Of a stretch of 64,000 nt of DNA, positions 837 through 45,643 are shown in pieces. Position 1 is the stretch's first letter, and each line of letters opens with the position of its first letter. The position numbers and the translations under genes were made by a program. The stretch comes from a virus (taxonomy: Duplodnaviria > Heunggongvirae > Uroviricota > Caudoviricetes). The stretch is from IMG/VR virus record IMGVR_UViG_3300032093_014924; one strand, given 5' to 3'. Under the pieces are notes generated by a model. That model was not told the origin of the DNA, did no database searches, and saw nothing but the letters and a program-made list of their open reading frames with translations.

Positions 837-1114
837 AAAGCACCTAATGTGGCTGAACCAGGTAAAACAATAAGTTTACCAAACATTGTTTCATATTTAT
901 TTCTATTAACAATATATGATATAAACATATAATATACAAAAAAATTTATGAATACCGCTAAATCATTGTTTTTGCTAATAAAAACAACTATCGAATTACC
1001 AAAAAACCCCCAAAGAAAATTAATAAGAGTTTCCTTAATTAATTCTATTGGTGATGTTATGGCATCAAATAACTTTATTTTATTTGTTAATATCTTTCTA
1101 CCCTTTTCTTTCAA
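791..1114 (-). CDS. hypothetical membrane protein
   Basis: 107-aa ORF with hydrophobic segments on the dominant strand. Confidence 0.35.
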   Translation of the reverse strand: MKEKGRKILTNKIKLFDAITSPIELIKETLINFLWGFFGNSIVVFISKNNDLAVFINFFVYYMFISYIVNRNKYETMFGKLIVLPGSATLGAFCGYKLAQYISIYVL

Positions 1115-1632
1115 CTTAAAATAACATTTATATTAAAATCTTTTATATTACCATTGATAATGTTTTCTTTCCCCCAAGCCTCAAACTTAGGAATGTGTTC
1201 AAGCCTGTCATCCCACATCTCAACATACTCAACATTTTCGTATTTCTTAATTAACTTATCCAAAATACTTAATTTAAATTTATCTGTACTACCACCATCA
1301 TTATAGTAATATTCATCAAAATGTAAATCATGTTTATCCAGAATCTTTTCAACATCACCAGACAACTTTTTAATCCTACCAGTCAGCAACACTACCAATA
1401 TTTTATCATTACCATAGTTCTCTTTGTAATCATCCACGACTTTTTTGTTAACATCAATATCAAATATTTCATCGTCAAGTGATTCTTTTCGACCCCACCA
1501 ACCACTATGTGGCCAATCTTTACCAGTTTTGTTTTTATACTCAATTTTACCATCTTCAGGTAATGGAGTATACGCAATGGTTTGGTCAAAATCAAAAACA
1601 GCAATCTTTTTTATATTTTCTACTTTCTTCAT
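1111..1632 (-). CDS. HAD-superfamily hydrolase (phosphatase/nucleotidase-like)
   Basis: N-terminal VFDFDQTIAY = HAD motif I DxDxT. ATGA start overlaps the downstream gene. Confidence 0.5.
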   Translation of the reverse strand: MKKVENIKKIAVFDFDQTIAYTPLPEDGKIEYKNKTGKDWPHSGWWGRKESLDDEIFDIDVNKKVVDDYKENYGNDKILVVLLTGRIKKLSGDVEKILDKHDLHFDEYYYNDGGSTDKFKLSILDKLIKKYENVEYVEMWDDRLEHIPKFEAWGKENIINGNIKDFNINVILS

Positions 1633-1684: not shown

Positions 1685-2182
1685 CTATTTTGTTTTAGGT
1701 CTTATTATCGTAAACATTTTTTTACCATCTAATTTTGGCATAAATTCTGCTGTTGATACATTTTCTAATTTAACCAATAGATTAAGAAACAATGTTTTTG
1801 CGTTATCTATGTAATTCATTTCTCTACCCCTAAATTCCATAGTTATTTTAACTTTATGACCTTTATTTATAAAATCAATAATATGATTTATACGGTAATT
1901 TAAATCATTTTCAGAAATATTCGGACCTATTTTTATTTCTTTTAAATCTATTTTTTTAGGTTTATTGTTTTTATTTTGTTCATATAAAAATTTTTCATAT
2001 TTAAGTAATTTACAAAAACCAATATTATCATTGTTATCAATGTTAAAAAGAACTAAGTCCATATTTTGGGTATTAGCCAAAGATAGAGCCTCAGTTAATG
2101 ATATAACACCAATTTCTGGTAATCTTACTTGAGAAACTTTTATTTCTTCATTAATTAAATGTTTTTTTTCTTTGTTTTTCAT
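1685..2182 (-). CDS. infC: Translation initiation factor IF-3
   Basis: 165 aa. INEEIKVSQVRL, GVISLTEAL, DLVLF, KYEKFLYEQNK, KEIKIGPNISENDL and FRGREM align along the whole length with bacterial IF3 (GIVSLxEAL...DLV...YGKFxYE...KEIKxRP...FRGRE). Confidence 0.85.
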   Translation of the reverse strand: MKNKEKKHLINEEIKVSQVRLPEIGVISLTEALSLANTQNMDLVLFNIDNNDNIGFCKLLKYEKFLYEQNKNNKPKKIDLKEIKIGPNISENDLNYRINHIIDFINKGHKVKITMEFRGREMNYIDNAKTLFLNLLVKLENVSTAEFMPKLDGKKMFTIIRPKTK

Positions 2183-4022: not shown

Positions 4023-4388
4023 TTATTTTATTTTTTTCCATTCACGAATATGGTATTTAGTTTTATATCGACCATATTCAATCTTACCAAGATAAAGTAT
4101 TATATCTAAGGCCATTGGTAATTCACTATATAATTTATCCCATTCAGCAATCTGTTCTTCTGTATATACAATATCACCAGTATCGTTTAATGGGTCAAAA
4201 TTAGTTGGTTTACCATTCAAGATTAAATCAATAGCATAATACAAATCATCTTCGCCAAATGGTGGTATAACTTCATCAAATTCATTTGTTGAAATACCGT
4301 TTATTATTTTGTCTTTACCTAAACTCCAATTAAGGTTTTTAAGTAATTTAACATGCTCTTCTTTTAACTCAAATTTTAATACACTCAT
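4023..4388 (-). CDS. hypothetical protein
   Basis: 121-aa ORF with ATGA overlap to the upstream gene. Confidence 0.4.
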   Translation of the reverse strand: MSVLKFELKEEHVKLLKNLNWSLGKDKIINGISTNEFDEVIPPFGEDDLYYAIDLILNGKPTNFDPLNDTGDIVYTEEQIAEWDKLYSELPMALDIILYLGKIEYGRYKTKYHIREWKKIK

Positions 4389-4699
4389 AGTTTATCATTT
4401 TTTTTAGTCGGGTCATACCATAAATATGTGGCTGTTAATTCTTCACCATCATTTATGTCTTTAATTGTCGCCAATTTTAAAAAGTCACCATCATATAAGA
4501 CAATACAATTGGGTTCGTCAGAATGGTTAAAAAAGGCCCCTAACGGTGTTCTAATATAACCATCTTCAAATCTAATATCTCTAACATGTGTTATACCGAG
4601 TATAACATTTTTTGGTATGTCATTCGTAGCGAATAATCCAAGTCCATCAATATTAGATGATTTAACAGTTAAAAACTCTGGTAATGGTCTATAATTCAT
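4385..4699 (-). CDS. SET-domain protein (putative lysine methyltransferase)
   Basis: 104 aa with GLGLFATNDIPKN, FFNHSDEPNC and GEELTATY, the SET core motifs GxG/NHSxxPN/ELTxxY. Size resembles minimal viral/bacterial SET proteins. Confidence 0.65.
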   Translation of the reverse strand: MNYRPLPEFLTVKSSNIDGLGLFATNDIPKNVILGITHVRDIRFEDGYIRTPLGAFFNHSDEPNCIVLYDGDFLKLATIKDINDGEELTATYLWYDPTKKNDKL

Positions 4700-4700
4700 A

Positions 4701-5993
4701 TTATCCTTTCACAACACCAAAACCAATGTTATCTCTTTCAGCCTCTATTTGAGAATGATAAAAACCTTTATAAGATTCTTTTATTAACTGAAGCGTATCT
4801 TCTAGACTCCACTCTACATTATCTATGGTCATATCTTTTATATTCTCAGACAAGTTATAAATAAACGCACCAGTTATTTTAGTCTTCTTACCATTTATTT
4901 TACCAGTGAGTAAATTATAAACTTCTTTAACTCTCCACTTTTCAGGTAAATAAAGTTCACATACTTTTCTTATTTGCTCATCTGTTAAGAAACCATAATC
5001 AATAATGAAATTAAATCTACCTGGTCTTTCAGCTGCTTTATCAACTAATTTTTTATCATTTGTTGACGCAATAAAACTTATTTTTTGTTTTTTAATACCA
5101 TCAAATATTGTTAAGAATTCACCCAAATTTTGAGTATAACCTCCAGTATCTCTTGACCCAATGAACAAATCAATATCATCCATTATGATAACAGCTTTGT
5201 CGAAGATATTACATGTTTCAATGATTGTTGCCAAATCAGACCCATCAACAAAATCTGGGATAATGAAAGTAGAATTAGGTAATAATTTTTTAGCTATTTC
5301 TCTAATTGTTTTAGTTTTACCTGTTCCTGGTTCACCATTCAACAAATATCTTAAATTACCACCTCTAGACACCACATTAACAAAATGGTCAATGAATTTG
5401 TTTTGAGTGTCATTTAACACTAGTAAATCATTATCACTATCATTGGTTTCAATTATTTCAATACCATGAAATGATGATTCATAAAATTTAACTTTAATTA
5501 CTTTGCCAACATATTTTGAAGAATTAAACGCTACCTTTTTCAATTTTTGAAAAATGTTATTAATTTCTTCATCCTTTATTTTCTTGTTTGTTGATATGTT
5601 TAAAAAACATTCAAAATCACCTCTACTGTTAACATATGCTCTAGTTTGAAAAATTAATAGATAATCATATTCTTTTAATTTACCCATAAACCAAAATGAT
5701 TCAGTATCTTCATGAACACCACCTTGTTCTAATTGTCCAATGTGATTAACTTTACCATATGTCATTACATTAACATCACTTTTATTTTTATTATCTTTAA
5801 AGCAAGATAATAAATATGAATTTATTACTGATAACTCAATAAAAGAAATTTTTTCTACTATTTGATTAACATTTGATAATCCATCGTCTGCGTCATCATC
5901 AATCCCAAGATTAAGTTTACTCATCTCATAAACCTCATGAGGCATGTCAAAATATTCGTCAATACTTCTGGTTTTAATTTTACCTTTTTTCAT
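4701..5993 (-). CDS. AAA+ ATPase
   Basis: Walker A LLNGEPGTGKTK and Walker B IIMDDIDLF. 430 aa. Confidence 0.7.
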   Translation of the reverse strand: MKKGKIKTRSIDEYFDMPHEVYEMSKLNLGIDDDADDGLSNVNQIVEKISFIELSVINSYLLSCFKDNKNKSDVNVMTYGKVNHIGQLEQGGVHEDTESFWFMGKLKEYDYLLIFQTRAYVNSRGDFECFLNISTNKKIKDEEINNIFQKLKKVAFNSSKYVGKVIKVKFYESSFHGIEIIETNDSDNDLLVLNDTQNKFIDHFVNVVSRGGNLRYLLNGEPGTGKTKTIREIAKKLLPNSTFIIPDFVDGSDLATIIETCNIFDKAVIIMDDIDLFIGSRDTGGYTQNLGEFLTIFDGIKKQKISFIASTNDKKLVDKAAERPGRFNFIIDYGFLTDEQIRKVCELYLPEKWRVKEVYNLLTGKINGKKTKITGAFIYNLSENIKDMTIDNVEWSLEDTLQLIKESYKGFYHSQIEAERDNIGFGVVKG

Positions 5994-6003
5994 TTTTTTT
6001 TAT

Positions 6004-6429
6004 TTAAATTAATTCTTTAATTACACTACTTACTAAATTATTATCAAAGTTTTTACCTTTATTCTCCTTATTGAATTTACCAATTAGGAAACCAGAATTT
6101 TTATTATCCCCAGATTGTATATAATCACTAATTATAGACCTAATTTCATTTTCTGTCATTGGTTTAGGTAAATAATCTTGTAAATAACTTAATTCCGTTT
6201 CATCATCAGATGACGATACATTTATTTTCTTTTTGTTTTCTATTGTCTCTTTAAGGTTTTTCTCAATAATCTTTAAAACCTTTAAAACATTTTCATCTGT
6301 TGATTCGATTAACTTTTTTTCTTGTGTTTCAATAGATGCTTTTAACAAACCTAAAAAGTTTTTCTTACCCATGTTTTTTTCTTTAAACGCTTGGATAAAA
6401 TCTTTACTGATTCTTTCTTTTATTAACAT
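6004..6429 (-). CDS. GatB/YqeY-like domain protein (tentative)
   Basis: 141-aa helical protein whose pattern resembles YqeY/GatB C-terminal domains. Weak. Confidence 0.35.
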   Translation of the reverse strand: MLIKERISKDFIQAFKEKNMGKKNFLGLLKASIETQEKKLIESTDENVLKVLKIIEKNLKETIENKKKINVSSSDDETELSYLQDYLPKPMTENEIRSIISDYIQSGDNKNSGFLIGKFNKENKGKNFDNNLVSSVIKELI

Positions 6430-19432: not shown

Positions 19433-19578
19433 CAGTCAGGACAGGATTCGAACCTGTATGTAAACCTTTTATCAACTTACCTTTACCAAAGCGTTTCTGC
19501 GCAACCTACTTTGGATTTATGTTGGTAATTTACTCGTAAGTATAATTGCGTAGCGTCTACCAATTTCGCCACCTGACT
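19433..19578 (-). tRNA. long tRNA-like gene, type-II (Leu-like) acceptor/D/T arms with a roughly 60-nt extra insertion
   Basis: Minus strand reads AGTCAGG-TG-GCGA-AATTGGTAGA-CGC ... ACAGG-TTCGAAT-CCTGT-CCTGACT-G. The perfect 7-bp acceptor stem, canonical D and T arms and a GCGCAGAAACGC variable-arm-like hairpin support a tRNA. Total length is about 146 nt. Confidence 0.5.
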
Positions 19579-23947: not shown

Positions 23948-25299
23948 CATAAGTCTTTAGCTTATGTGATATAAGCACTACAAAAATACAAATAAATAAA
24001 CAAATAAACAAATAAATATTTTTTTTTCTTAAAATATGTCTTTTTTAATATTATCATATATTTATCATATATAGAGTTAATCTGATAAATAATGTTAAAA
24101 TCATATAAATATAAACTTAAACCAACTAATGAACAAATTGTTTTATTGAATAAACACTTTGGTTCAATTAGGTTTATATATAATTATTTTTTAAATGAAA
24201 GAAAACATGAATATGAAACAAACAAAAACTCAATTAATTATTATGATAACGCTAAATCATTAACTGAATTAAAAAAACAAGATAATTATTCATGGTTAAA
24301 AGAAATTAATTCACAATCATTACAGGATTCATTAAAAAATTTAGAAACAGCTTATAAGAATTTTTTTAGATTCAAAAAAGGTTTTCCTAAATTTAAATCT
24401 AAACACGATAAAAATAGTTTTACAATACCTCAATTTGTTAAATTAAATAAAAATGAATTATCTATACCTAAATTTAAAGACCCTATTAAAGTCATTATAG
24501 ATAGAAAATTTAATGGTTTAATTAAACAATGTACTATTTCAAAAACACCAACAAATGAATATTTTGTATCTATTTTGGTTGAAACTGAACATAATAAATT
24601 ACCAAAAACTAACAAATCTGTTGGTATTGATTTAGGTATTAAAGAGTTTGTTATAACATCTGATGGTTATAAATATAAAAATAATAGATACACAAAAACA
24701 TACGCTAAAAAACTTAAAGAACATCAACAACATTTAAGCAGAAAAATAAAAGGTAGTAACAGATATAATAAACAAAAATTAAAAGTGGCCACTATTCATA
24801 AGAAGATAACCAATTCTAGAATAGATAATCTACATAAAATATCCACAGATTTAATTAAAAAATATGATTTAATTGTATTGGAAGATTTAAATATTAAGGG
24901 TATGGTTAAAAATCATAAATTATCTAAACATATTTTAGATGTTTCATGGGGAAAATTTGTAACAATGTTACGTTATAAATCTGAATGGAATGATAAAAAA
25001 ATAGTTAACATAGATAGGTTTTTTCCTAGTAGTAAAACATGTAATTGTTGTGGTTATATTAATCAAAATTTAAAATTAAATATTAGAGAATGGGTTTGCC
25101 CATCATGTAATACTAAATTAGATAGAGATTTAAACGCAAGCATAAATATCCTTAAAGAAGGAAATAAGATATTATCGTCAGGAACTGACGATTACAGACG
25201 TGGAGATGAAATAAGACCAACATCCGTTGGCACAATCGGTGAAACGTCTAAAATTCTTAACAATATTGTTAAGAAACCCATTGGTCTTTAGCCAATGGG
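23948..25299 (+). mobile_element. IS200/IS605-family (IS1341-like) TnpB-only insertion element
   Basis: The only large plus-strand gene in its neighbourhood. Flanked by two related hairpins with an identical TCTTTAG loop: CATAAG-TCTTTAG-CTTATG at 23948-23966 and CCCATTGG-TCTTTAG-CCAATGGG at 25277-25299. Confidence 0.6.
24092..25291 (+). CDS. tnpB: TnpB (OrfB_IS605) RNA-guided endonuclease-family transposase accessory protein
   Basis: N-terminal YKYKLKPTNEQ, central RuvC-like region, and C-terminal CNCCGY...CPSCNTKLDRDLNASINI zinc ribbon + RuvC-III signature. Confidence 0.85.
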   Translation: MLKSYKYKLKPTNEQIVLLNKHFGSIRFIYNYFLNERKHEYETNKNSINYYDNAKSLTELKKQDNYSWLKEINSQSLQDSLKNLETAYKNFFRFKKGFPKFKSKHDKNSFTIPQFVKLNKNELSIPKFKDPIKVIIDRKFNGLIKQCTISKTPTNEYFVSILVETEHNKLPKTNKSVGIDLGIKEFVITSDGYKYKNNRYTKTYAKKLKEHQQHLSRKIKGSNRYNKQKLKVATIHKKITNSRIDNLHKISTDLIKKYDLIVLEDLNIKGMVKNHKLSKHILDVSWGKFVTMLRYKSEWNDKKIVNIDRFFPSSKTCNCCGYINQNLKLNIREWVCPSCNTKLDRDLNASINILKEGNKILSSGTDDYRRGDEIRPTSVGTIGETSKILNNIVKKPIGL

Positions 25300-25533
25300 T
25301 AGTTCATCTATAGTGTTTATTAAAGCCATATGTGGAATATGTCTACCAATCAACACAGACCATATTAATTCACGTTTTTGATTTAAATCCCAAACAAAAT
25401 CACGCTGTAAGTTCTTACCTCTTGTTTCTAAGAAAACATCCCAATCAATATTTAATTGTTTAAAGTACTTTACGCTTGAGCAAGCTTCTTCAACTTTTAG
25501 ACCAATATTTCTAAGTTCTTTTATAGTTTTCAT
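25288..25533 (-). CDS. hypothetical protein
   Basis: 81-aa ORF. Its 3' end runs into the right-end hairpin of the IS. Confidence 0.35.
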   Translation of the reverse strand: MKTIKELRNIGLKVEEACSSVKYFKQLNIDWDVFLETRGKNLQRDFVWDLNQKRELIWSVLIGRHIPHMALINTIDELPIG

Positions 25534-26654
25534 TTTTTTAAATGTTCGTATAACCTCTTGTTATCAAAGTCTTTAAGGTATTCTTCTGGTGATGGTGTTT
25601 TACCGTCAATCAAAGAGAAAAACATATTTGAAAATAACATTAAATTATTCTCTGAACAAACTTTAAATACATTTGTGGCGTAATTTTTACGTTCTTCTTT
25701 TGTGTTGTTCTTAGGTTTAAATTCATATAAAACATACCAATAATGATTTAACGCACGTATTAACCCATAATACTTTTCTCTTAGTTCAAGTATCTCATTT
25801 TCACGTTCTTTGAATGTTGATATGAATTCTTCAACTTCATTATTCTTTATTATCCCCAATATATTATAAAAAGATAATTTATCTTTTAAATGGTGAACCA
25901 AAACATATTCAGGATTCTTTAATTTAACTCTGTTAAAATCATTATCAACAATAACATACCCCTCTTCTGAAAATGGCATATTTTCAAAAGTCTTAACCAA
26001 AGAATCTATGTTCTTATTTAGGTCATATTCAGTCACCACAGGGATATTTATTTGTTTTGATACTTCCATTACATCATTGTAAGATAATTCGTTTAAGGTC
26101 TTTAAATCCCTTATTGTTAATAATGTTAGTGAAGATTCAGAATGTGGTTTAACAACAATATTATAAGGTGTCATTAATTCAAAAACATAACTAAAACCTT
26201 TTGTTAATTTATTTTCAGTTAAACCATATTTTGAAGCTGTATTCCAAAACAGTTGATTAAATGTTAAATCTAACATTCCATTAACATTCCCTTCACCTTC
26301 AGCAGTTCCTGTTGTTGCAGCAAACCACTTATCTTTATTCCAATCGTAGTGTAAATTAATTAAAGAACCATCACACTTCTCAAGGATTCTTGCGGTATTC
26401 CAATTAATTGTATGAGCATTAGTTTCACTATGATTAAAGAATTTTTTAAAAGCCATACCAATAACTTTCCATGTGTCTAATTCGAGAATTAATCCACGAC
26501 ATTCTTGAACTTCTTCCAAAGCCATTATTACTGGTGATGATAATTGGTCATACTTTAATATGACTTTATCATAGTATAACTTATGTTTTAACTCTAAATC
26601 AGATACGGTTTTTTCTAACCCATCTCTATTTAACTTTTCAACTATTTTTAACAT
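25530..26654 (-). CDS. rnlA: RNA ligase 1 family (T4 RnlA-like)
   Basis: RILEKCDGSLINL = KxDGSL motif I, as in T4 Rnl1 (KEDGSL). 374 aa. Confidence 0.6.
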   Translation of the reverse strand: MLKIVEKLNRDGLEKTVSDLELKHKLYYDKVILKYDQLSSPVIMALEEVQECRGLILELDTWKVIGMAFKKFFNHSETNAHTINWNTARILEKCDGSLINLHYDWNKDKWFAATTGTAEGEGNVNGMLDLTFNQLFWNTASKYGLTENKLTKGFSYVFELMTPYNIVVKPHSESSLTLLTIRDLKTLNELSYNDVMEVSKQINIPVVTEYDLNKNIDSLVKTFENMPFSEEGYVIVDNDFNRVKLKNPEYVLVHHLKDKLSFYNILGIIKNNEVEEFISTFKERENEILELREKYYGLIRALNHYWYVLYEFKPKNNTKEERKNYATNVFKVCSENNLMLFSNMFFSLIDGKTPSPEEYLKDFDNKRLYEHLKK

Positions 26655-27004: not shown

Positions 27005-27931
27005 TTATTTTTTCAAAATGTTTTTAACCACGCCAGTTAATTTAATTGGTTTAATTTTTTCCCAATCAGTTATATCATTACTCATTTTAGGTGAACCATC
27101 TGGACTAATAGCTATAGTTATATGTGGTATATTTTTTTTTGATTCATATCCACTTACTTCTATGGCAATTGCTTTATCTGATATACCTAATTTATTACCT
27201 TGTAATATCACTTCTTTATCCAAATCTTTTTCATTCTCAACACCTTTTCCAAATTGAATTGTCATATGATGTGCATAAACTTTCCAATCTTCAGGTATGA
27301 TATCTGAAAACATATTAATCAATTTATTATGTGATTCTTCATCCAATACAACTGCTGAATATAACACATCATCTTTTTTACCCATATCTTTGCTATTAAT
27401 CACTTTTTCAATTGTTATTGGGTTATGTGTCTTATATTTATCAATCATTGATTTAATCTTATCTAAAGGCACATTATGTGTATTTCTTTTGGCCAATTCT
27501 TCTGCTGTTAATCCACCAGTACCGATATTAATAAATTTTATGTTCTTATCATCGTAACCCATTTCTAATGCAGCCATAACATATTGTTTTGGTTCACTTG
27601 GGCTTAAATTGGTATTATCAATTATAACTGGTGTAATACCATCTTTCATAGATTTTATAGCGTTTTTAAGATTTTGTTTATGCATATTACTTAATGGTCC
27701 AAAATCTTTATTTGCCATCATATTATTAAAGAATTCGTTATAATCACCAGTAGCTTCAATTAAATCATCTGTTGAATGGATAATACCATTACCAACTATA
27801 GATTTAGCTTTTGTGCTTTTACCGCTACCAGGTATACCAACCATTATAATCAATTCTTGATTATCTCTGGTTATTGGAACATTTATTATATTTGTTCCGT
27901 TCAATTGTTCTAATATATTTCTTATTTTCAT
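27005..27931 (-). CDS. P-loop kinase, polynucleotide-kinase-like
   Basis: IIMVGIPGSGKSTKA Walker A near the N-terminus, as in T4 Pnk. No HAD motif is visible in the C-terminal part. Confidence 0.45.
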   Translation of the reverse strand: MKIRNILEQLNGTNIINVPITRDNQELIIMVGIPGSGKSTKAKSIVGNGIIHSTDDLIEATGDYNEFFNNMMANKDFGPLSNMHKQNLKNAIKSMKDGITPVIIDNTNLSPSEPKQYVMAALEMGYDDKNIKFINIGTGGLTAEELAKRNTHNVPLDKIKSMIDKYKTHNPITIEKVINSKDMGKKDDVLYSAVVLDEESHNKLINMFSDIIPEDWKVYAHHMTIQFGKGVENEKDLDKEVILQGNKLGISDKAIAIEVSGYESKKNIPHITIAISPDGSPKMSNDITDWEKIKPIKLTGVVKNILKK

Positions 27932-31595: not shown

Positions 31596-32399
31596 TTATC
31601 GTTTACCAACATTTTTAAGTAATGTTAATTGTTCAGAACTAAAAACATTCCCCTCACCATAACTACCATTCCACTTTTCAATGTATTGTTGAGTCAACAA
31701 CATTGGTGATAGTGACCTTTCTTTAAGAGCATATGCATCGGCTTCAGCTTTAGCTTGAGTTACTTTAATCTCAGCTTGTGCTTTAGCTTCAACAAGCTTG
31801 TTTTGGGCACTAAGTCCATCTTGTATCGCCTTATTTTTGGCCTCAATAGCTTGAACAATCGTAGGTGGATATTGCATACCAGATGTCATTTGCTCAAGCT
31901 TAAAACCTTCTTTTTGTAAAGTACTATCAAGCATCATTTGAACCATGTTTTCAAATGTTGCCCTATTAGAAATAACACTATCTGTTGTGAAAGAATTAAA
32001 TTGAATCCTAAACGCATCCCTTACATAATTGTAAATAGTTGTGTTAACAATCTCTGATAGCTCCTTACGATATTTCGTAAAAATAACTGGTGAATGTCCA
32101 TCAATAACTTTAATACTTAAAGTTGGGTCAACTGTAAACACTGAACCGTCTTTAGCATTAACAGTGAACGCTTCGTAATCAACTGTTTGAACAAATGTTG
32201 GGAATTCATATACACTCGTTGTTAATGGATTATAAAACTGCCAACCAGTTACAAGAGCAACACCATCAACACCTTTATCGGATGCTACAAGATTAACTTT
32301 AACACCCTCATGTCCAGCATCAATCCGAGAACATGCACAACCTTGCATTATCAAAAATGCACCGAAAATTAAAAAAATTGTTTTTACTGACTTTTTCAT
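31596..32399 (-). CDS. SPFH/band-7 domain lipoprotein
   Basis: Signal peptide + lipobox (LIMQGCAC). SPFH-like core and C-terminal coiled coil (KAQAEIKVTQAKAEADAYA). Higher G+C than the flanks. Confidence 0.5.
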   Translation of the reverse strand: MKKSVKTIFLIFGAFLIMQGCACSRIDAGHEGVKVNLVASDKGVDGVALVTGWQFYNPLTTSVYEFPTFVQTVDYEAFTVNAKDGSVFTVDPTLSIKVIDGHSPVIFTKYRKELSEIVNTTIYNYVRDAFRIQFNSFTTDSVISNRATFENMVQMMLDSTLQKEGFKLEQMTSGMQYPPTIVQAIEAKNKAIQDGLSAQNKLVEAKAQAEIKVTQAKAEADAYALKERSLSPMLLTQQYIEKWNGSYGEGNVFSSEQLTLLKNVGKR

Positions 32400-34014: not shown

Positions 34015-34040
34015 AAGTGATTTATTTTTAAATGTTTTAG

Positions 34041-34112
34041 TAGCCCCACTTGGAATTGAACCAAAAACTAATTCTTAGAAGGAATTTGTTATATCCGTTT
34101 AACTATAGAGCC
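34041..34112 (-). tRNA. tRNA-Arg(UCU) candidate
   Basis: Minus strand: GGCTCTA-TA-GTTA-AACGGATA-TAAC-A-AATTC-CTTCTAA-GAATT-AGTT-TTTGG-TTCAATT-CCAAG-TGGGGCT-A. The acceptor stem needs three G-U pairs, so confidence is moderate. Confidence 0.45.
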
Positions 34113-34123
34113 ATGTTTAATTG

Positions 34124-34197
34124 TGGGCCTCACAGGACTTGAACCTGTAACCCCTTGATTATGAGTCAAGTGCTCTAACCGCTTGAGCTAGAGGCCC
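34124..34197 (-). tRNA. tRNA-Met/Ile2 (CAU anticodon)
   Basis: GGGCCTC-TA-GCTC-AAGCGGTTAGA-GCAC-TTGAC-TCATAAT-CAAGG-GGTT-ACAGG-TTCAAGT-CCTGT-GAGGCCC-A gives a clean cloverleaf. Promoter motif at about 34204-34225 immediately upstream. Confidence 0.8.
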
Positions 34198-36268: not shown

Positions 36269-37183
36269 TTATTTAATTGTTTTTTTAAAGTTATCTGTTT
36301 CTAACGATGTTATTTTATTACCAAGTTCTTGACTAGGTTTAAGATTAAATTTATCCATTACTTCTTGTGAATTAACAGACAATTCAAAATCTATAAAAGC
36401 ATCAACTAACTTTTTATCTAAATTATTTATTTGACCGAATTTTTTTATTTGTTCATCATTCAATGTTATATTTTTTTGCATCTTTTTTAATGCTACGGCT
36501 GTATCAATACTTATATTTAAAAAACTAAGTAAAAATTGAATGTTTCTTATCTCATCAATAGTGTATCTTAATTCATTTAATTTGTTACCAATGTTTTTAG
36601 GGTTATTTAATTTTAATAAAGTTGATATTGTTATGATATAATCATCTGTTAAGTTTTTGAAATTCTTATTAATATTAAGTTTAGGAAAAATCCAATCAAA
36701 TAAATTATATCTATCTATTAAAGATAGAAAGAAAGAAACATTTTTAGCTGATTTAATTCCTTTAATAAATTCATCTTTTACTCTCTCAGCAGATATACCT
36801 TCTAAACTAGCATCTTTTTGTAATGCTTCATCTGTTTGTTGGTCTATATCACTATCTAATCTGGCTGAGAATCTTAGAACTCTTAAAATCCTAAGTCTAT
36901 CTTCATTGAATCTATCTTCTGGTTTACCAACGGTTCTAATCACACCATTTTTTATATCTTCAATACCACCAACAAGGTCAACAATTTCTTTATTTTTAAT
37001 ATCGTAAAATAAAGCATTTATTGTTATATCTCTTCTTAGCACATCTTGATATATATCTGTGAATTCGACTGAATCTGGTCTTCTTTTATCAGCTAAAGTT
37101 TTTTCATAATCTTCAAATTCTTTTTTAAAGAATTCTTTAGCTATTTGTTCCCAATTTTCCATTTTAATTATTTTAATTTCCAT
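36269..37183 (-). CDS. CCA-adding tRNA nucleotidyltransferase, C-terminal portion (neck/body), separate ORF
   Basis: ADKRRPDSVEFTDIYQDVLRRDITINALFYD = the conserved RRD(F/I)TINA motif that follows the head domain. Begins with its own ATG overlapping the end of the GIY-YIG gene. Confidence 0.7.
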   Translation of the reverse strand: MEIKIIKMENWEQIAKEFFKKEFEDYEKTLADKRRPDSVEFTDIYQDVLRRDITINALFYDIKNKEIVDLVGGIEDIKNGVIRTVGKPEDRFNEDRLRILRVLRFSARLDSDIDQQTDEALQKDASLEGISAERVKDEFIKGIKSAKNVSFFLSLIDRYNLFDWIFPKLNINKNFKNLTDDYIITISTLLKLNNPKNIGNKLNELRYTIDEIRNIQFLLSFLNISIDTAVALKKMQKNITLNDEQIKKFGQINNLDKKLVDAFIDFELSVNSQEVMDKFNLKPSQELGNKITSLETDNFKKTIK

Positions 37184-37875
37184 TTATAACCACCACACTT
37201 ATTTCTATTACCATTTATTACCGACCAAATATTGCCTTGACTCAACCCTAATTCTTTTGCTGCTGCTGTTGCACTAACCCATTCTTTAATTAATTCACTA
37301 TCTTTAGATAATTGTAATACTGGTGTTGCGTTCCAAGACAAAGTACCTTTTTTGGTTTCTGATATTTGTTTTTTAGTCTCTTCGCTGTGTTTATTACCAG
37401 TATTTCTACCAGGTTTACCAATTAATGATTGACTTATTTTTTCTCTTGTTATATTACTAACCTCCCTATTTTTATTGTTTTGACTGATTTTATTCCTATA
37501 CTCTAACGACCTTATGTGACCAGAAACACCATCGCCTCCATTGGTAAGGTTGGTTAATGGACCATTTTTTAAATCATTCCTACCAATAACTAATATTAAT
37601 TTTTTTTCTAACTCGAAAGCATCAACTTCAAATATATTTTCACTAATTTTTAAAATTATTGGTTTTAAACCAATATTTATTATTTTATTAATTTTTCTAA
37701 TTTTATATGTGTTATTATCACACTTCATCCTATTAGGGTTTAAGTGTTCTAAGCATCTTTTGTAACATCCCTTTCCAACATAAAATGGTTCATATTCAAA
37801 TTTATAATCACCATATGTAAATTCACCTTTTTTTCTTGGGTCTAGGTAAACATAGACATAATATTTTGATTCCAT
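37168..37875 (-). CDS. GIY-YIG homing endonuclease inserted within the CCA-enzyme gene
   Basis: YVYVYLDPRKKGEF...FYVGKGCYKRCLEHLN = GIY-YIG module, with C-terminal NUMOD-like basic repeats. Located between the two halves of the CCA enzyme. Confidence 0.75.
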   Translation of the reverse strand: MESKYYVYVYLDPRKKGEFTYGDYKFEYEPFYVGKGCYKRCLEHLNPNRMKCDNNTYKIRKINKIINIGLKPIILKISENIFEVDAFELEKKLILVIGRNDLKNGPLTNLTNGGDGVSGHIRSLEYRNKISQNNKNREVSNITREKISQSLIGKPGRNTGNKHSEETKKQISETKKGTLSWNATPVLQLSKDSELIKEWVSATAAAKELGLSQGNIWSVINGNRNKCGGYKWKLK

Positions 37876-37919
37876 GACATTCTTTTTATTATAAATATCA
37901 TGGATTAATCTAAAAGTCG

Positions 37920-39485
37920 CTATTTCATTAATTTAGTTAAAAATTTTTCGTAACTACCATTATTTAAACGTTTTAAATAATCTTTAAACCCTTCTAAATC
38001 ATAACCTTTATATTGGTCTATTCTGAATGTGGCTATTTCATATTCATCACTATCTGTTATAACATTAATGACACCAAATGCTTTTCCTGTTGCTATTGTT
38101 TTATAACCGTTTTCTTGTAATATGTTTTCAATATCATCTGGTTTAGCATTTGTTGCTAAATCATAATCTTTTGGTTCTTTATTTAGTAAAACATCCCTTA
38201 CTGAACCACCAACAAGATATAAATCATAACCATTCTTAACAAAAATATCTTTAATATCTATTATGTCCTTTGGTAAGTTAATATCATATTTAATTCTTAT
38301 TTCAGATGAAGTATTTAATTTATTTTCGTTTTCGGTAAAAAATTGTTTATATTCATCATCTTCTTTCACGTTATTTAATAAACGTTCTTCTTCATCATTT
38401 AATGGTCTATTTATGTTTTTTAAAATCAATTCTTGATGTTTTTCATCATACTTCCAAAAATCTTCTAAAATATCTTCTAATATAGTTACATCATTTACTT
38501 TAATGTTTTCATCATAAATTAATTTAATATAACCATCATCAATCATTTTTTTAACCATTTTATAATGTGGTAATTTTTCTAATAAACCATTCTTAAATTT
38601 AATTGGTAATGAATTATAATAAACTTTTTTTAAGTTTTCATCTAACTCATCTAATTGATAAGGTTCAAAATAATATTCAAAATTTTTTATATAAATTATT
38701 TTTTCATTATTTTTTAATTTATTAAAAAAATCAATACTTAATTTATCACCAGCTAAAGCATCTGAACGCATATTTGGGAAATTAGTTATCACATCACGTT
38801 TTATTTTACAAAATAGTTCTGGGTTTTTAACTTCTACTGGATTAGACGATAGTTTAGATAAATCATATATAACAGACCCGTGTAATGTATTATCATACCC
38901 ATCTATACCGCTAACATTAACACCATTAAAACCATTGTACTCCATTATTCTTGTTGACATGGATGCTAAATTGGTTTTGTTCTTCATGTCATTTGCGGCT
39001 TCTTTAACCATATTTATATATTCACGATATTTTGGAATATTTAAACCTAGGTATTGTGCATTATTTATTATTTTTAAATAAATAATTTTGAATTTGTTAT
39101 CCATTTCAAATTTGCTATCATAAACTCTAACAACTAAATAAAAACTTTCATTTATTAGTTTTAATGTTTTAAATAACATTTCAGCATGGTCTGGTGATTT
39201 AACCCTAAATAAATTTTTATAAATATCAAAATCAACACGATAAATATTATCTTTTATTTTAGTTAATTCTTTTTTTGAGTTATCGGAATCATCAAAATTT
39301 TCACAACTATAAGTAGAAAAATAAAGACCAGAACCAAAATGCCCAGTTCCACGACCTTGCATACGAAATAAATTATCTGAACCATATGGTCTTATATTTT
39401 CTACATTTTCTATATCACCTTTATGGTAATTAAATTCCGTTTCGTTTAATAAGTTTCTTAATTTGAATTTAATATAGTTTTTCAT
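37920..39485 (-). CDS. Unknown about 400-aa N-terminal domain fused to the CCA-adding enzyme head domain (N-terminal half of the split nucleotidyltransferase)
   Basis: C-terminal 90 aa YDLYLVGGSVRDVLLNKEPKDYDLATNAKPDD...GKAFGVINV...EYEIATFRIDQY = class-II polymerase-beta head domain (GGxVRD, DxD, ATFR). The ORF stops immediately after. Confidence 0.7.
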   Translation of the reverse strand: MKNYIKFKLRNLLNETEFNYHKGDIENVENIRPYGSDNLFRMQGRGTGHFGSGLYFSTYSCENFDDSDNSKKELTKIKDNIYRVDFDIYKNLFRVKSPDHAEMLFKTLKLINESFYLVVRVYDSKFEMDNKFKIIYLKIINNAQYLGLNIPKYREYINMVKEAANDMKNKTNLASMSTRIMEYNGFNGVNVSGIDGYDNTLHGSVIYDLSKLSSNPVEVKNPELFCKIKRDVITNFPNMRSDALAGDKLSIDFFNKLKNNEKIIYIKNFEYYFEPYQLDELDENLKKVYYNSLPIKFKNGLLEKLPHYKMVKKMIDDGYIKLIYDENIKVNDVTILEDILEDFWKYDEKHQELILKNINRPLNDEEERLLNNVKEDDEYKQFFTENENKLNTSSEIRIKYDINLPKDIIDIKDIFVKNGYDLYLVGGSVRDVLLNKEPKDYDLATNAKPDDIENILQENGYKTIATGKAFGVINVITDSDEYEIATFRIDQYKGYDLEGFKDYLKRLNNGSYEKFLTKLMK

Positions 39486-39519: not shown

Positions 39520-40407
39520 TTAACAACCAAAAAAATCTTTTAAATCTTCATTTTTTTTAAGGTCTCTTATCGCAAACTCTATTATTTTTTTAATTCTTAT
39601 AGTTGTCATATTATACTCTTCTGACATTTGTTTAATTGTTAATTGTTTATAGTCATACAAACCATAATAATGACAAATAATAACTCTACTTATAGGGTTT
39701 AAAGAATATATTACCTTTTTTAATACTTCGTTTGATTCTTTTTCTTCACTATCTACTTCAAAATCATTGTGTTTGAATAAATAATCATTTTCTTCAGTTA
39801 TTAATGATTTAGTAACAACACTAGATTTAATAGCCATCAATACACTATTTTTTATTCTATCTGTACCAATATCAGAATTATTAATAACATATTCGTAATC
39901 AAGTTCATGACCACATTCTTTCTCCATTTTTGCTTTCAAATTATTTATTATTTTAATTTTAGGCATAATGTTTGAAGATATGTTAGCTACATATAAATTT
40001 TCATTTAAAAACAATAAAATTCTTTTTCTTATATGCCAAATAGCATATGAAATAAATTTATTATCTGAATCTGTTTTGAATTGTTCAATAGCTTCACTTA
40101 AGCCAATATTGCCCTCACATATCAATTCTTCAACACCAATATCACCACTGGTTATTTTTTTAGCATATGTTCTTGCAACAGAAACAACAAATAAAAGATT
40201 ATGATTTATTATTTTATCTTTTATTTTTTTTCTGTCTAATTCATCAGTTGTCTCAGACAACTTTATGAATAGTTCTTTTTCTTCTTCTTTGGTTAAAGGT
40301 TTAAGCTTTTCAATTTGACTGTAATAAGCTTTTAAAGATTCTTTAGATAATGTGTTTACAAAAAAATCATCATTACCAAGTCTTTTTTTACCGAAATCTG
40401 TTATCAT
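39520..40407 (-). CDS. Sigma-70 family RNA polymerase sigma factor
   Basis: Region 2 FISYAIWHIRKRI and region 4 LTIKQMSEEYNMTTIRIKKIIEFAIRDLKK. Confidence 0.7.
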   Translation of the reverse strand: MITDFGKKRLGNDDFFVNTLSKESLKAYYSQIEKLKPLTKEEEKELFIKLSETTDELDRKKIKDKIINHNLLFVVSVARTYAKKITSGDIGVEELICEGNIGLSEAIEQFKTDSDNKFISYAIWHIRKRILLFLNENLYVANISSNIMPKIKIINNLKAKMEKECGHELDYEYVINNSDIGTDRIKNSVLMAIKSSVVTKSLITEENDYLFKHNDFEVDSEEKESNEVLKKVIYSLNPISRVIICHYYGLYDYKQLTIKQMSEEYNMTTIRIKKIIEFAIRDLKKNEDLKDFFGC

Positions 40408-41386: not shown

Positions 41387-41489
41387 GTTGTTAGGACAGG
41401 ATTCGAACCTGTACGCAGTATCTTAATTACAGGCTCTTTTCACGATACTGCCGAGCCATGCGTGCGTCTACCAATTCCGCCACCTAACT
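41387..41489 (-). tRNA. long type-II tRNA-like gene (Leu-like), about 103 nt
   Basis: AGTTAGG-TG-GCGG-AATTGGTAGA-CGC ... ACAGG-TTCGAAT-CCTGT-CCTAACA-A. The middle 50 nt contains a 9-bp stem CGCAGTATC/GATACTGCG. Confidence 0.45.
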
Positions 41490-41757
41490 TCCACCCCACC
41501 TTGAGATTACTGGTGAGTAGATGTATCGGTTTTCTTTCTTTCAATAAACCTGTGGGTCTTACCCTCTTAAAATTAGTCAAACTACTTGGAGCCTCTGTTA
41601 CCTAGCTTTATTCCAAAGAGACTGGCGTTTTATAGAGCTATAACCAGTTTCTACCAAAATGTGATAGTCTTCTTTATAGATATTAGGATGTCCAGTCTAA
41701 TACCCTATTCATTGTTTAAGTCTTGAATTAAAGACTCTGAGTATCTCTTACTCATTG

Positions 41758-41843
41758 TAGTTAGAGTGGGGGTCGAACCCACAAGGGCGTTTCTGCCCAC
41801 AAGATTTTAAGTCTTGCATGTTTTCCTATTTCATCATCTAACC
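41758..41843 (-). tRNA. tRNA-Leu(UAA)
   Basis: GGTTAGA-TG-ATG-AAATAGGAAAA-CAT-G-CAAGA-CTTAAAA-TCTTG-TGGGCAGAAACGCCCTTG-TGGG..TTCGACC-CCCAC-TCTAACT-A. Anticodon UAA, long variable arm, canonical T loop. Confidence 0.7.
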
Positions 41844-42964: not shown

Positions 42965-43317
42965 TTGTAAGGTTTTTAGTGGAGCGAGTCGGAGTTGCAC
43001 CAACGTGTTGGTTATTCTTCAATACCTTTCTACATGTTTATAATGGTTTTCTAACCATTCAAAATACATCAAATTTGTTAAGTTCTCTGATTAGAAACTA
43101 ATGGACTACCATTATGTTGTAGAAAATACTACAATTAAGTAAGTTATTACTATCAGCGATATCAGGCTACCGCAAGCTCTCCAGCGAAGCTACATGTAAC
43201 TTCGTTAAGGAAATTTTCAGAAACAACTAAATCGTTGCCATTTGTTTGTTTTGATAGGGTATTTAAGTGTTTCCATCTAACACTACATGCTTAATACTTA
43301 CGACTATAACCAGTCGA
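42965..43317 (-). ncRNA. ssrA: tmRNA (SsrA)
   Basis: Minus-strand 5' end GGGGCGAUAUUAGAAUCGACUGG... is near-identical in pattern to the bacterial SsrA 5' end GGGGCUGAUUCUGGAUUCGACGGG. The 3' end ...GGUGCAACUCCGACUCGCUCCA is the T-arm-like + acceptor strand pairing with GGGGCGA. A candidate internal tag ORF ...FAGELAVA-UGA ends with a typical hydrophobic (A/L/V)A tag. Promoter motif about 14-19 nt upstream. Confidence 0.8.
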
Positions 43318-43330
43318 TTCTAATATCGCC

Positions 43331-43350
43331 CCATTGTTTTAATAATTATT
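43331..43350 (-). promoter_or_regulatory. conserved upstream motif instance upstream of tmRNA
   Basis: ttattacaaatatactaaaa about 14 nt 5' of the GGGG start of ssrA. Confidence 0.5.
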
Positions 43351-43933: not shown

Positions 43934-44650
43934 TTATTTTTTTCTACTTATTACCGAATCAATAATACCATATTTAAGTGCTTCATCAGCATTCAACCAA
44001 AGGTCCCTGTCAGCATCTTTCATAACTTGTTTTGCAGTTTTGTTTGTGTACTCACCAAGCAACCCAAATAATATTTCATTATATTTCTCAGTTTCAGCAA
44101 TTGTTAATCGCATGTCTTGAATAGTACCCCCCATTGAAGAAGAAACTTGGTGTAGCATAACTCTACTGAAACTTAAACTATACCTTTTACCTTTGGTTCC
44201 AGCACCTAATAATACACTACCCATACTAGCGGCCATACCTGTGTTTATAGTGACGATATCAGAAGATATATAACCAATAACATCAACAATTGATAAACCA
44301 CTTTTAACGCTACCACCAGGTGTATCAATATGTAGAGTAATATCTTTTGTTTCCATATTATCAAGAAACATTAATTGTGCTTGAACAACCGTGCTCATCC
44401 TATCGTTAACTGGTCCAGCTAACCATATAATCCTATCCATCATCATTCTATCAAACACTGACATTAGTGTTGCTCTGAATTCTCTTTCTTCCAAAATCAT
44501 CGGTGATAAAGAACCAAATACATTTACATTTGAATAAATGTTTTCTTGCAGTTTTTCCCAATAATATAGTTGCATACTGCTTATGCCCATGTGTTTTGTT
44601 GCATAAGATTTGAATTCTTCATGCATACCAGTGTCTACTAAATTTTCCAT
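43934..44650 (-). CDS. clpP: ATP-dependent Clp protease proteolytic subunit ClpP
   Basis: DRIIWLAGPVND...TPGGSV...NTGMAASMGSVLLGAG...MLHQ gives a full-length match to the ClpP fold, with a catalytic Ser (GMAASMGS) and His (LHQ). Confidence 0.85.
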   Translation of the reverse strand: MENLVDTGMHEEFKSYATKHMGISSMQLYYWEKLQENIYSNVNVFGSLSPMILEEREFRATLMSVFDRMMMDRIIWLAGPVNDRMSTVVQAQLMFLDNMETKDITLHIDTPGGSVKSGLSIVDVIGYISSDIVTINTGMAASMGSVLLGAGTKGKRYSLSFSRVMLHQVSSSMGGTIQDMRLTIAETEKYNEILFGLLGEYTNKTAKQVMKDADRDLWLNADEALKYGIIDSVISRKK

Positions 44651-45106: not shown

Positions 45107-45643
45107 TTAATTATTAAAGCATTTCCTACATATAGGTATATAAGTTTTTTTATCACCGATATACATCAAATCAGTATTATTAACCATTCTTTTAGAATAG
45201 TTTGCCAAATTTTTCTTACAGACCATACAAATTGAATTAATCTTATCAACTTTATCAGCAATTGAAAATAATTTAGACATTGTTATAAACGGATTTCTTT
45301 CATAATCCAAATCTAAACCACTTATTATTATTCTTTTACCTTCATCAGCCATTCTTAATACAATCTTGTATAAATCTTCATCAAAGAATTGAGCTTCATC
45401 TATTGCAATAACTTCATAATCTTTACTCTTATTGTAGATATCATCAATGTTATCGACAACAACAGCTTGTAATTCACCACATAAATCATGTGTTGCTATT
45501 GCATTATTTTCCTTTTCGTTTCTACTATCAATGTTAGGTTTGAAAACAATGAAACTTGTTTCAGAAATTATAACTCTTTTAATTCTTCTAATCAACTCTT
45601 CTGTTTTACCTGAAAACATAGGGCCACAAATAACCTCAATCAC
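45107..45643 (-). CDS. tdk: Thymidine kinase
   Basis: MIEVICGPMFSGKTEELIRR (P-loop) ... IAIDEAQFF ... C-terminal Cys-pair zinc ribbon (CMVC...CRKC). Confidence 0.85.
   Translation of the reverse strand: MIEVICGPMFSGKTEELIRRIKRVIISETSFIVFKPNIDSRNEKENNAIATHDLCGELQAVVVDNIDDIYNKSKDYEVIAIDEAQFFDEDLYKIVLRMADEGKRIIISGLDLDYERNPFITMSKLFSIADKVDKINSICMVCKKNLANYSKRMVNNTDLMYIGDKKTYIPICRKCFNN

Follow-up and report, generated by a model that had tools for sequence, protein, structure and literature searches.

The viral DNA analysed here, 64,000 nucleotides (nt) of IMG/VR record IMGVR_UViG_3300032093_014924 (Caudoviricetes; the whole stretch is referred to as the window), encodes on its minus strand, at positions 4385 to 4699, a protein of 104 amino acids (aa) that we call mini-SET. 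The open reading frame (ORF) is a real gene and its product contains a SET domain. In our assessment, mini-SET is probably an active protein-lysine methyltransferase dependent on S-adenosylmethionine (AdoMet), pared down to a nearly bare catalytic core and carried as an accessory gene by a marine jumbo phage, and it would methylate a conserved host protein. The domain assignment by itself is routine, being obtained with Pfam, and relatives already bear the label "SET domain-containing protein" in IMG and UniProt; the result is an annotation with context and not a new mechanism. What is notable is the near-total loss of the SET-I region, the wide spread of the family in marine phages, and the orthologs newly identified in SAR406, SAR11 and Saccharibacteria, with the SET gene of SAR406 joined to metK and ahcY in an apparent operon.

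The gene and its immediate surroundings comprise the following features.

4385-4699, minus strand: mini-SET gene, the whole ORF including the stop codon, with an ATG start and encoding 104 aa (ORF, PF00856 match, AlphaFold2 model and fold match).
4704-4708, minus strand: Shine-Dalgarno-like AAGGA, read from the sequence, 4 nt upstream of the SET ATG.
4701-5993, minus strand: AAA+ ATPase gene, directly upstream of SET.
4023-4388, minus strand: p121, gene for a 121-aa protein, directly downstream of SET.

The encoded protein is MNYRPLPEFLTVKSSNIDGLGLFATNDIPKNVILGITHVRDIRFEDGYIRTPLGAFFNHSDEPNCIVLYDGDFLKLATIKDINDGEELTATYLWYDPTKKNDKL. The original prediction had picked out GLGLF, NHSDEPNC and GEELTATY as occurring in the order of a SET domain, and the translation of this 104-aa ORF confirms them at residues 19-23, 58-65 and 85-92, respectively. 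The SET gene is one member of a tightly packed string of minus-strand genes, all of them co-directional: a single nucleotide separates the stop codon of the AAA+ ATPase gene (4701-4703) from the SET start codon, the AAGGA element falling within the last codons of the ATPase gene, and the SET stop overlaps the p121 start by 4 nt (ATGA). No second SET copy was found within the window. Among public assemblies, 63 blocks contain the identical protein, on contigs reaching more than 200 kb and in the gene order YqeY, AAA, SET, p121, A1-like. The small size of the ORF and the AT-richness of the genome (the GC content of the window is 26%) could raise the suspicion of a chance open frame or of a coincidental resemblance to SET motifs, even though long chance ORFs are uncommon in such DNA; this explanation is effectively excluded by the significance of the Pfam match (E = 1.2e-10), the homologs of equal length, numbering in the hundreds, in which the active site is conserved, the ribosome-binding site, the tight co-directional packing and the recurrence of the identical protein in the 63 blocks.

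The PF00856 search upheld the proposed SET-domain assignment, with 42.1 bits against a gathering score of 22.4 and the E-value given above. The match is limited to residues 54-92, which correspond to profile positions 62-104 of 105, that is, to the C-terminal half of the Pfam model; the N-terminal half of the domain is supported separately by the alignment of the family profile to vSET and MLL1 and by the structure model. The former of these, vSET (A612L) of the Chlorovirus Paramecium bursaria chlorella virus 1 (PBCV-1), is the classic minimal viral SET protein, a histone H3K27 methyltransferase of 119 aa (PDB 1N3J/2G46/3KMA). Searching PDB sequences with mini-SET and with the family profile retrieved SET methyltransferases only, with SMYD3 and MLL at the top (E = 2e-8 for MLL1 and 8e-6 for SMYD3); vSET was matched at E = 2e-3 by the single sequence (phmmer) and at 6e-7 by the family profile. 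The protein also matches phrog_28741 (E = 3e-23), labelled "unknown function" in PHROGs. NCBIfam holds no model for the mini-SET family and yielded a very weak match to AnkI/LegAS4 (16.6 bits against a family cutoff of 550 bits), whereas the defence-system models of PADLOC gave no match for either SET or p121.

In SET enzymes, AdoMet is bound by the GxG turn together with the NHS segment; passage of the ExxxxY segment through the NHSxxPN loop creates a pseudoknot, and the tyrosine of this segment lines the lysine channel. These elements were located in mini-SET by aligning the vSET sequence, validated against 1N3J, to the family profile.

4679-4693, minus strand: family-specific N-terminal motif Y3-R-P5-L6-P7 (Y/F-x-P-L-P), outside the canonical SET signature.
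4637-4645, minus strand: SET motif I, G19-L-G21 (GxG), AdoMet-binding strand/turn; aligns with G15-Y-G17 of vSET and GRG of MLL1.
4559-4579, minus strand: residual SET-I segment, residues 41-47 (DIRFEDG), a short loop according to DSSP of the model; alignment gaps concentrate here.
4505-4528, minus strand: SET motif III, N58-H59-S60-D-E-P63-N64-C65 (NHSxxPN), expected to contact AdoMet and to form one pseudoknot limb; aligns with N69-H70-S71 and P74-N75 of vSET.
4424-4441, minus strand: SET motif IV, E87-L-T-A-T-Y92 (ELxxxY), with the predicted catalytic tyrosine Y92, which aligns with the catalytic Y105 of vSET.

Conservation was computed over 358 aligned family members. In motif I, G19 and G21 are retained in 96% and 98% of them, and in motif III the values are 100% for N58, 95% for H59, 97% for S60 and 96% for both P63 and N64. 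E87 and Y92 are invariant in alignment A1 and reach 91% each over the 358 proteins, the remainder (~8%) being gapped and not substituted. The catalytic tyrosine and the pseudoknot residues, which the original prediction had singled out as decisive, are thus in place: Y92 is found in every ungapped family member, and NHSxxPN and ExxxxY, the segments from which SET domains build the pseudoknot, are both present and conserved. Conservation of the motifs at 91-100% over the 358 members, together with the 838 family clusters defined at 50% identity, points to strong purifying selection on the active site. The Y-x-P-L-P motif, likewise invariant in alignment A1 (Y 88%, P5 95%, L6 95% and P7 89% over the 358 members), lies in a less confidently modelled region (mean predicted local distance difference test [pLDDT] score of 75 for residues 1-10) and possibly contacts the substrate or a dimer partner. 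S15, G35, H38 and R50 are further signature residues of the family beyond the general SET consensus.

The AlphaFold2 (AF2) model of mini-SET, built from a 55-sequence alignment (pLDDT 87.3, predicted template modelling score 0.76), is nearly all beta, with one short helix before NHS. In a Foldseek search of the PDB, vSET came first (3kma_A; TM 0.70, root-mean-square deviation 2.7 Å over 103 columns, 26% identity), followed exclusively by SET and PR domains, including those of MLL, SET8 and PRDM proteins and LegAS4 (8swi_A), so that the structure prediction, too, sided with the SET assignment. The top matches among the predicted viral structures of BFVD are all annotated SET proteins, several of them from "uncultured Caudovirales phage" and one a 100-aa Marseillevirus protein. 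With 104 aa, against 119 aa for vSET, mini-SET does have a size close to that of the smallest viral SET proteins, as had been proposed; it is not unique in this respect, given the Marseillevirus protein and several phage SET proteins in BFVD and UniProt.

The reduction affects one region above all. SET-I is the variable part of the SET domain and comprises 20-30 residues in other SET domains. In the model of mini-SET it is a loop of ~7 residues between strands 33-40 and 48-50, and neither pre- nor post-SET domains are present. The aligned core covers 83 profile positions against 100 residues of vSET and is hence 17 residues shorter, with the gaps lying between the GxG strand and the pre-NHS segment; in the same interval, ~27 residues of MLL1, its SET-I insert, have no counterpart. 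Mini-SET therefore lacks a typical SET-I insert, which is atypical for a SET domain but not disqualifying. As modelled, the protein would correspond to the SET-N and SET-C core, slightly smaller than the textbook minimal SET domain.

By analogy with characterized SET enzymes, G19xG21 and N58-H59-S60 would line the pocket that holds AdoMet, the substrate lysine would enter a narrow channel from the face opposite the cofactor, and Y92 would position the epsilon-amine for SN2 methyl transfer. Because mini-SET appears too small to form a full substrate groove alone, it is probably a homodimer. It is as a dimer that vSET is reported to act, and in a mini-SET homodimer the partner subunit might complete the substrate site, with Y-x-P-L-P, S15, G35, H38 and R50 serving as candidate substrate or dimer contacts. 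A supporting hint comes from tandem double mini-SETs of 195-212 aa, found as three cluster representatives (P0296, P0316 and P0375): their first module has N-Y-S in place of N-H-S and keeps the catalytic tyrosine, whereas the second has lost NHS and often the tyrosine. Judging from these substitutions, the tandem proteins look like pseudo-dimers of one catalytic and one structural module, and since they pair a catalytic with a degenerate module, the single-module proteins may well work as dimers. Among ten long relatives scanned for Pfam domains, the only fusion was Amidoligase_2 with SET (P0272, one cluster), possibly a gene-call artefact; the other nine have no second domain.

Mini-SET belongs to a large family. 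A word-indexed search recovered 284 close homologs, nearly all of 96-105 aa; all 120 homologs listed have a precomputed PF00856 match, and some are named "SET domain-containing protein" in IMG. A profile search of 1.84 billion cluster representatives yielded 838 clusters (50% identity) at E ≤ 1e-10 and 4,475 at E ≤ 1e-3, the median length of the best 150 representatives being 112 aa. Homologs in deposited phage genomes are gp27 of Pelagibacter phage Kolga, PSSM7_204 of Prochlorococcus phage P-SSM7, a protein of Prochlorococcus phage P-RSM6, one from a marine single-virus genome and, more distantly, one from Rhodoferax phage P26218, all annotated as "hypothetical protein". With a further 72 mini-SET loci in IMG/VR, the carriers span unrelated phage types, namely, T4-like cyanomyoviruses, the pelagiphage Kolga and jumbo phages. 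Close homologs reside on contigs of more than 350 kb, jumbo phages with genes for NAD salvage and phosphoribosyl pyrophosphate (PRPP), Sir2, macro domains and homing endonucleases. The window itself belongs to a jumbo-phage lineage, and a phage as carrier, as stated in the original prediction, is borne out both by the window and by its relatives, which are jumbo-phage contigs; a megablast search of the window against 50,697 deposited phage genomes returned no match. On one related jumbo-phage contig (JAWVGW010000003.1, 364 kb; locus L001, 12431-16300), genes for Cas3 (HD and helicase domains) and then a Cas7fv-like protein are located a few kilobases from SET, a pair that looks like a phage-borne type I-F-variant CRISPR-Cas module. 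Full-text literature searches turned up no functional study of any bacteriophage SET protein, the mentions found being passing annotations (PMC9025141, PMC10734472).

The family is also cellular. A scan of one genome per prokaryotic species identified orthologs of about 100-108 aa with 53-60% identity in Marinimicrobia/SAR406, encoded on chromosomal contigs of up to 734 kb from both single-cell and metagenome-assembled genomes. Saccharibacteria also carry orthologs, and the form of Pelagibacteraceae (SAR11), ~40% identical and 142 aa long, has an insert of ~38 aa after NHSxxPN. The searched literature yielded no experimental study of the mini-SETs of SAR406, SAR11 or Saccharibacteria. The synteny of the SAR406 gene is fixed: on one side are YbeY, a PgpH-like 7TM-HD protein, FabH, the RNase P RNA and a gene for a 235-aa protein, and on the other side, on the same strand, SET is followed by MetK (S-adenosylmethionine synthetase) and AhcY (S-adenosylhomocysteine hydrolase). 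In each of the 18 SAR406 loci, SET either overlaps metK or directly adjoins it, and in most of them ahcY begins after a further 8 nt; an example is locus L084.

4974-5303 of L084: SET.
5300-6418 of L084: metK.
From 6427 of L084: ahcY.

This arrangement appears to be a core-genome operon that joins mini-SET to the enzymes making its cofactor and removing its product. It provides the strongest contextual evidence that the mini-SET family is an active, AdoMet-consuming one with a cellular substrate. No SAM riboswitch was detected upstream of the SAR406 cluster at the Rfam gathering level, and the sequence called nearby as "ORF" c6 corresponds to the gene for the RNase P RNA. In SAR11, mini-SET comes after genes for an aminotransferase and alanine dehydrogenase. 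Three contigs attributed to other groups, Flammeovirgaceae (L086), Flavobacteriales TMED96 (L087) and Chloroflexota (L089), show exactly the SAR406 synteny and are probably mis-binned SAR406 DNA.

The cellular and phage proteins differ in detail. SAR406 copies have F-E-P-L-P and, further on, DYTKHDW, whereas the phage protein has Y-R-P-L-P and TYLWYDP, Y95 being replaced by H in SAR406. Four Saccharibacteria copies (L093, L096, L098 and L100) have lost the histidine of NHS (NFS, NYS or NNS) and retain the catalytic tyrosine, which may reflect altered cofactor binding or lost activity. In a neighbour-joining tree based on ~100 columns and computed without support values, the mini-SETs of phages, SAR406, SAR11 and Saccharibacteria form one clade, apart from the ~110-aa Methanosarcina-type SETs, and the sequences of each cellular group cluster tightly, nested among phage lineages that branch deeply. 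Nested within the SAR406 cluster is the SET of a 4.5-kb "viral" contig (L042; IMG/VR 3300025120_014618) that has no adjoining metK and represents either a recent phage capture from SAR406 or a misclassified fragment.

The phage loci have no such fixed context: neither metK nor ahcY was found beside phage SET genes or elsewhere in the window. When the ORFs of 79 loci were clustered, the only synteny recovered was specific to individual lineages (dUTPase, an unassigned 163-aa protein, Sir2, PRPP synthetase), with neighbours such as dUTPase, Sir2 and ribonucleotide reductase in other phage lineages. The AAA+ ATPase of the window has weak matches to the anti-phage ATPase IetA/IteA (PADLOC, E = 1.4e-11; NCBIfam, 37 bits where the cutoff is 510), probably a generic AAA+ match. 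In the window and in Kolga alike, the gene preceding SET encodes an AAA protein, and this candidate linkage was rejected as a coincidence, the AAA proteins of the two phages being unrelated (E = 0.27); both AAA families are found elsewhere 1-12 genes from SET.

The downstream neighbour required closer scrutiny. In all 14 SET loci of the lineage to which the window belongs, p121 (52-63% identical) occupies the +1 position, while the upstream neighbour varies, and in the window the two genes share the 4-nt ATGA overlap. These features would favour an obligate two-gene module in which p121 is a specificity subunit or the substrate of the SET enzyme. The reverse comparison makes such a module very improbable: SET lies within 3 kb in only 10 of the 68 viral p121 loci, and about 60 other phage loci, as well as all the cellular genomes, have SET but not p121. 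A functional SET-p121 cassette was rejected on the former count, from which it also follows that p121 is the resident gene of the lineage and SET an accessory insertion beside it. The p121 family, with at least 219 clusters, is confined to this jumbo-phage lineage and is usually encoded 0.3-3 kb upstream of the T5-A1-like gene; p121 has no match in Pfam, PHROG, NCBIfam or PADLOC, and its AF2 model (pLDDT 78) retrieved no fold match from the PDB (best E = 2.6), so that p121 appears, on this model, to be an orphan fold. As for mini-SET, its occurrence in 10 of the 68 p121 loci of the same lineage, its presence in unrelated phage types and its chromosomal orthologs with 53-60% identity mark it, by gene distribution, as a sporadic accessory gene shared with cells, similar to auxiliary metabolic genes or "morons".

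Several observations weigh against an active enzyme directed at a host protein. SET-I, which normally supplies half of the peptide groove and of the lysine channel, is almost absent from mini-SET; given the loss of the histidine in Saccharibacteria, not every family member need be active; no conserved phage neighbour, fusion or regulon among the 79 loci and the ten long relatives indicates a substrate; and the tree does not settle the order of the backbone, so that the direction of transfer between phages and cells is not fixed. The first two of these could be accommodated if mini-SET were a catalytically inert SET-like (beta-clip) module functioning in binding, as a decoy or as an AdoMet "sponge". 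Inactive SET and PR domains exist, PR domains of PRDM proteins are among the fold matches, a SET-I region this severely shortened may not suffice for a complete lysine channel, and NHS is lost in the second modules of the tandem proteins and altered in some Saccharibacteria copies. We nevertheless regard an inert module as quite improbable, because the residues conserved at 91-100% in hundreds of divergent clusters are exactly those for cofactor binding and catalysis, including the tyrosine, and because an operon shared with metK and ahcY, as in SAR406, agrees with AdoMet being converted to S-adenosylhomocysteine (AdoHcy) and not merely bound.

The third observation bears on the substrate. An active mini-SET could modify a protein of the phage itself, such as one that belongs to the virion, binds DNA or takes part in replication: the gene is located among phage-expressed genes in a phage genome, no host target is known, and self-modification of viral proteins is an established theme. 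Such a target is unlikely, though, for the same family is a core chromosomal gene in SAR406, and is present also in SAR11 and Saccharibacteria, where there is no phage substrate, and the unrelated carrier phages have no common neighbour gene that could encode one. The substrates of the cellular orthologs (53-60% identity) are necessarily proteins of the cell, and the hosts of the carrier phages are unrelated to one another; a conserved host protein, methylated in the course of infection, is therefore the most likely target of the phage enzyme. Nucleoid proteins, ribosomal proteins and EF-Tu, which the original prediction had named as possible targets, are reasonable candidates, but they are speculation that draws no support from this analysis.

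In the jumbo phage, the gene lies in a block of cell-derived genes for host takeover, shares the minus-strand string with its neighbours and forms part of a gene pool that phages have in common with the marine bacteria SAR406, SAR11 and Saccharibacteria. More tentatively, mini-SET might represent an unrecognised bacterial system of lysine methylation, the SAR406 form of which, co-transcribed with genes of the SAM cycle, modifies a conserved and abundant housekeeping protein (e.g., in translation or the nucleoid), and which phages from many marine lineages (jumbo phages, pelagiphages and cyanomyoviruses) have captured to impose or boost this modification during takeover; the SET-I-less dimer of ~100-residue subunits would then be the smallest functional SET architecture. 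We regard this wider scenario as possible but doubtful.

Besides the T5-A1-like protein, the window encodes the following genes with recognizable products.

1111-1632, minus strand: HAD_SAK_1 / polynucleotide kinase (PNK)-phosphatase-like protein.
1685-2182, minus strand: full-length IF3 (IF3_N and IF3_C).
6004-6429, minus strand: YqeY/GatB-like protein.
24092-25291, plus strand: TnpB/IS605 OrfB-type protein (HTH_OrfB_IS605, OrfB_IS605 and Cas12f1-like TNB).
25530-26654, minus strand: T4 Rnl1-type RNA ligase.
27005-27931, minus strand: AAA_33 (polynucleotide-kinase-like) protein.
31596-32399, minus strand: SPFH/Band-7 protein.
34040-34197 and 41757-41843, minus strand: tRNA-Arg(TCT), tRNA-Met and tRNA-Leu(TAA).
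36269-37183, minus strand: CCA-adding enzyme, part 2, positions 69-126 and RNA-binding domain.
37168-37875, minus strand: GIY-YIG/NUMOD homing-endonuclease ORF, between the two CCA-enzyme parts.
37920-39485, minus strand: CCA-adding enzyme, part 1, with head-domain positions 1-72 at its C-terminus.
39520-40407, minus strand: sigma-70-family factor, regions 2 and 4.
42977-43332, minus strand: tmRNA-like gene, with 48.5 bits for Rfam RF00023 (gathering score 47) and no ARAGORN call.
43934-44650, minus strand: ClpP protease.
45107-45643, minus strand: thymidine kinase.
47745-48737, minus strand: full DnaJ (J domain, Zn-finger and C-terminal domains).
49919-51349, minus strand: DUF2828 and DUF7788 protein, 476 aa.
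56776-59217, minus strand: 813-aa protein with an ArdC-N (anti-restriction, single-stranded DNA-binding) domain.
62459-63298, minus strand: sigma-70-family factor, regions 2, 4 and 1.2.

IF3, the YqeY/GatB-like protein, the tmRNA-like gene and the tRNAs are related to translation; ClpP, DnaJ, thymidine kinase and the SPFH/Band-7 protein form a cell-like group serving proteostasis and metabolism. The presence of two sigma-70 factors within 25 kb suggests phage-directed reprogramming of the host RNA polymerase. A set of RNA-repair proteins is formed by the Rnl1-type ligase, the AAA_33 protein and the HAD_SAK_1 protein. The gene for a CCA-adding enzyme of the poly(A) polymerase family appears to be split (36269-39485, minus strand), and the homing-endonuclease ORF located between its two parts suggests interruption by an intron or a homing endonuclease gene. 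Weak Rfam tRNA matches at 19433-19578 and 41388-41489 (both on the minus strand; 34.7 and 32.5 bits; not called by ARAGORN) measure 146 and 102 nt, far over tRNA length, and could be intron-containing or interrupted tRNA genes. The TnpB-type gene, the sole sizeable plus-strand gene with a domain match in this minus-strand window, is presumably an insertion of the IS200/IS605 family in the phage genome.

To our knowledge, what is understood of SET lysine methyltransferases comes almost wholly from eukaryotic chromatin, from a handful of effectors that bacteria secrete and from one enzyme of an algal virus. Mini-SET adds to these a compact family (~100 residues), abundant both in ocean phages and in bacteria that rank among the most numerous of the ocean (SAR11, SAR406). 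The identity of its substrate would reveal the role of lysine methylation in histone-free, genome-streamlined bacteria and the reason why unrelated phages repeatedly carry the gene, and the cultured carriers (Pelagibacter phage Kolga and Prochlorococcus phages P-SSM7 and P-RSM6) make this question directly testable. Mini-SET also offers a natural minimal scaffold for asking how little of a SET domain catalysis needs.

Compared with known SET systems, mini-SET combines conserved catalytic blocks with an unusual architecture. MLL/SET1 and SMYD3 are its best sequence and profile matches in the PDB, with nearly identical NHSxxPNC and GEELTxxY blocks, but they are large histone methyltransferases of several domains that depend on complexes and possess SET-I and post-SET elements. 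The secreted SET effectors of bacteria, such as LegAS4/RomA of Legionella, NUE of Chlamydia, BtSET of Burkholderia and BaSET of Bacillus, are large proteins that target eukaryotic histones (PMC3980110). They have the SET catalytic fold in common with mini-SET, LegAS4 (8swi_A) being among the fold matches; mini-SET, however, differs from them in architecture, scores far below the LegAS4-family cutoff, has no secretion context and belongs to free-living marine hosts. Closer in size are the small archaeal and bacterial SETs, prokaryotic stand-alone proteins of ~110-130 aa with a nucleoid-protein target where one is known, as in the case of Methanosarcina mazei Go1-SET, a methyltransferase of the chromatin protein MC1-alpha (PMC3980110). 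The distant relatives recovered here include Methanosarcina loci with 29-32% identity; proteins of this type fall outside the mini-SET clade, are longer and keep more of SET-I, and nothing in this analysis ties the phage enzyme to nucleoid proteins. The mini-SETs of SAR406, SAR11 and Saccharibacteria, in contrast, belong to the same family and clade as the phage protein and have the same motifs and the same truncated SET-I, the difference being that the SAR406 genes have a fixed core synteny with metK whereas the phage copies have no methyl-cycle neighbours. The best structural match remains vSET, like mini-SET a virus-encoded bare SET core without pre- or post-SET, the motifs of which align residue by residue. 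Mini-SET is not its ortholog (26% identity, profile E = 6e-7) but is placed in a separate clade that includes chromosomal bacterial members, and its core is 17 residues shorter, has SET-I nearly deleted and displays residues of its own (Y/F-x-P-L-P, S15, G35, H38 and R50). Finally, the hosts of the carrier phages, Prochlorococcus and Pelagibacter, are bacteria without histones, and the substrate of mini-SET is therefore expected to differ from histone H3K27, the substrate of vSET.

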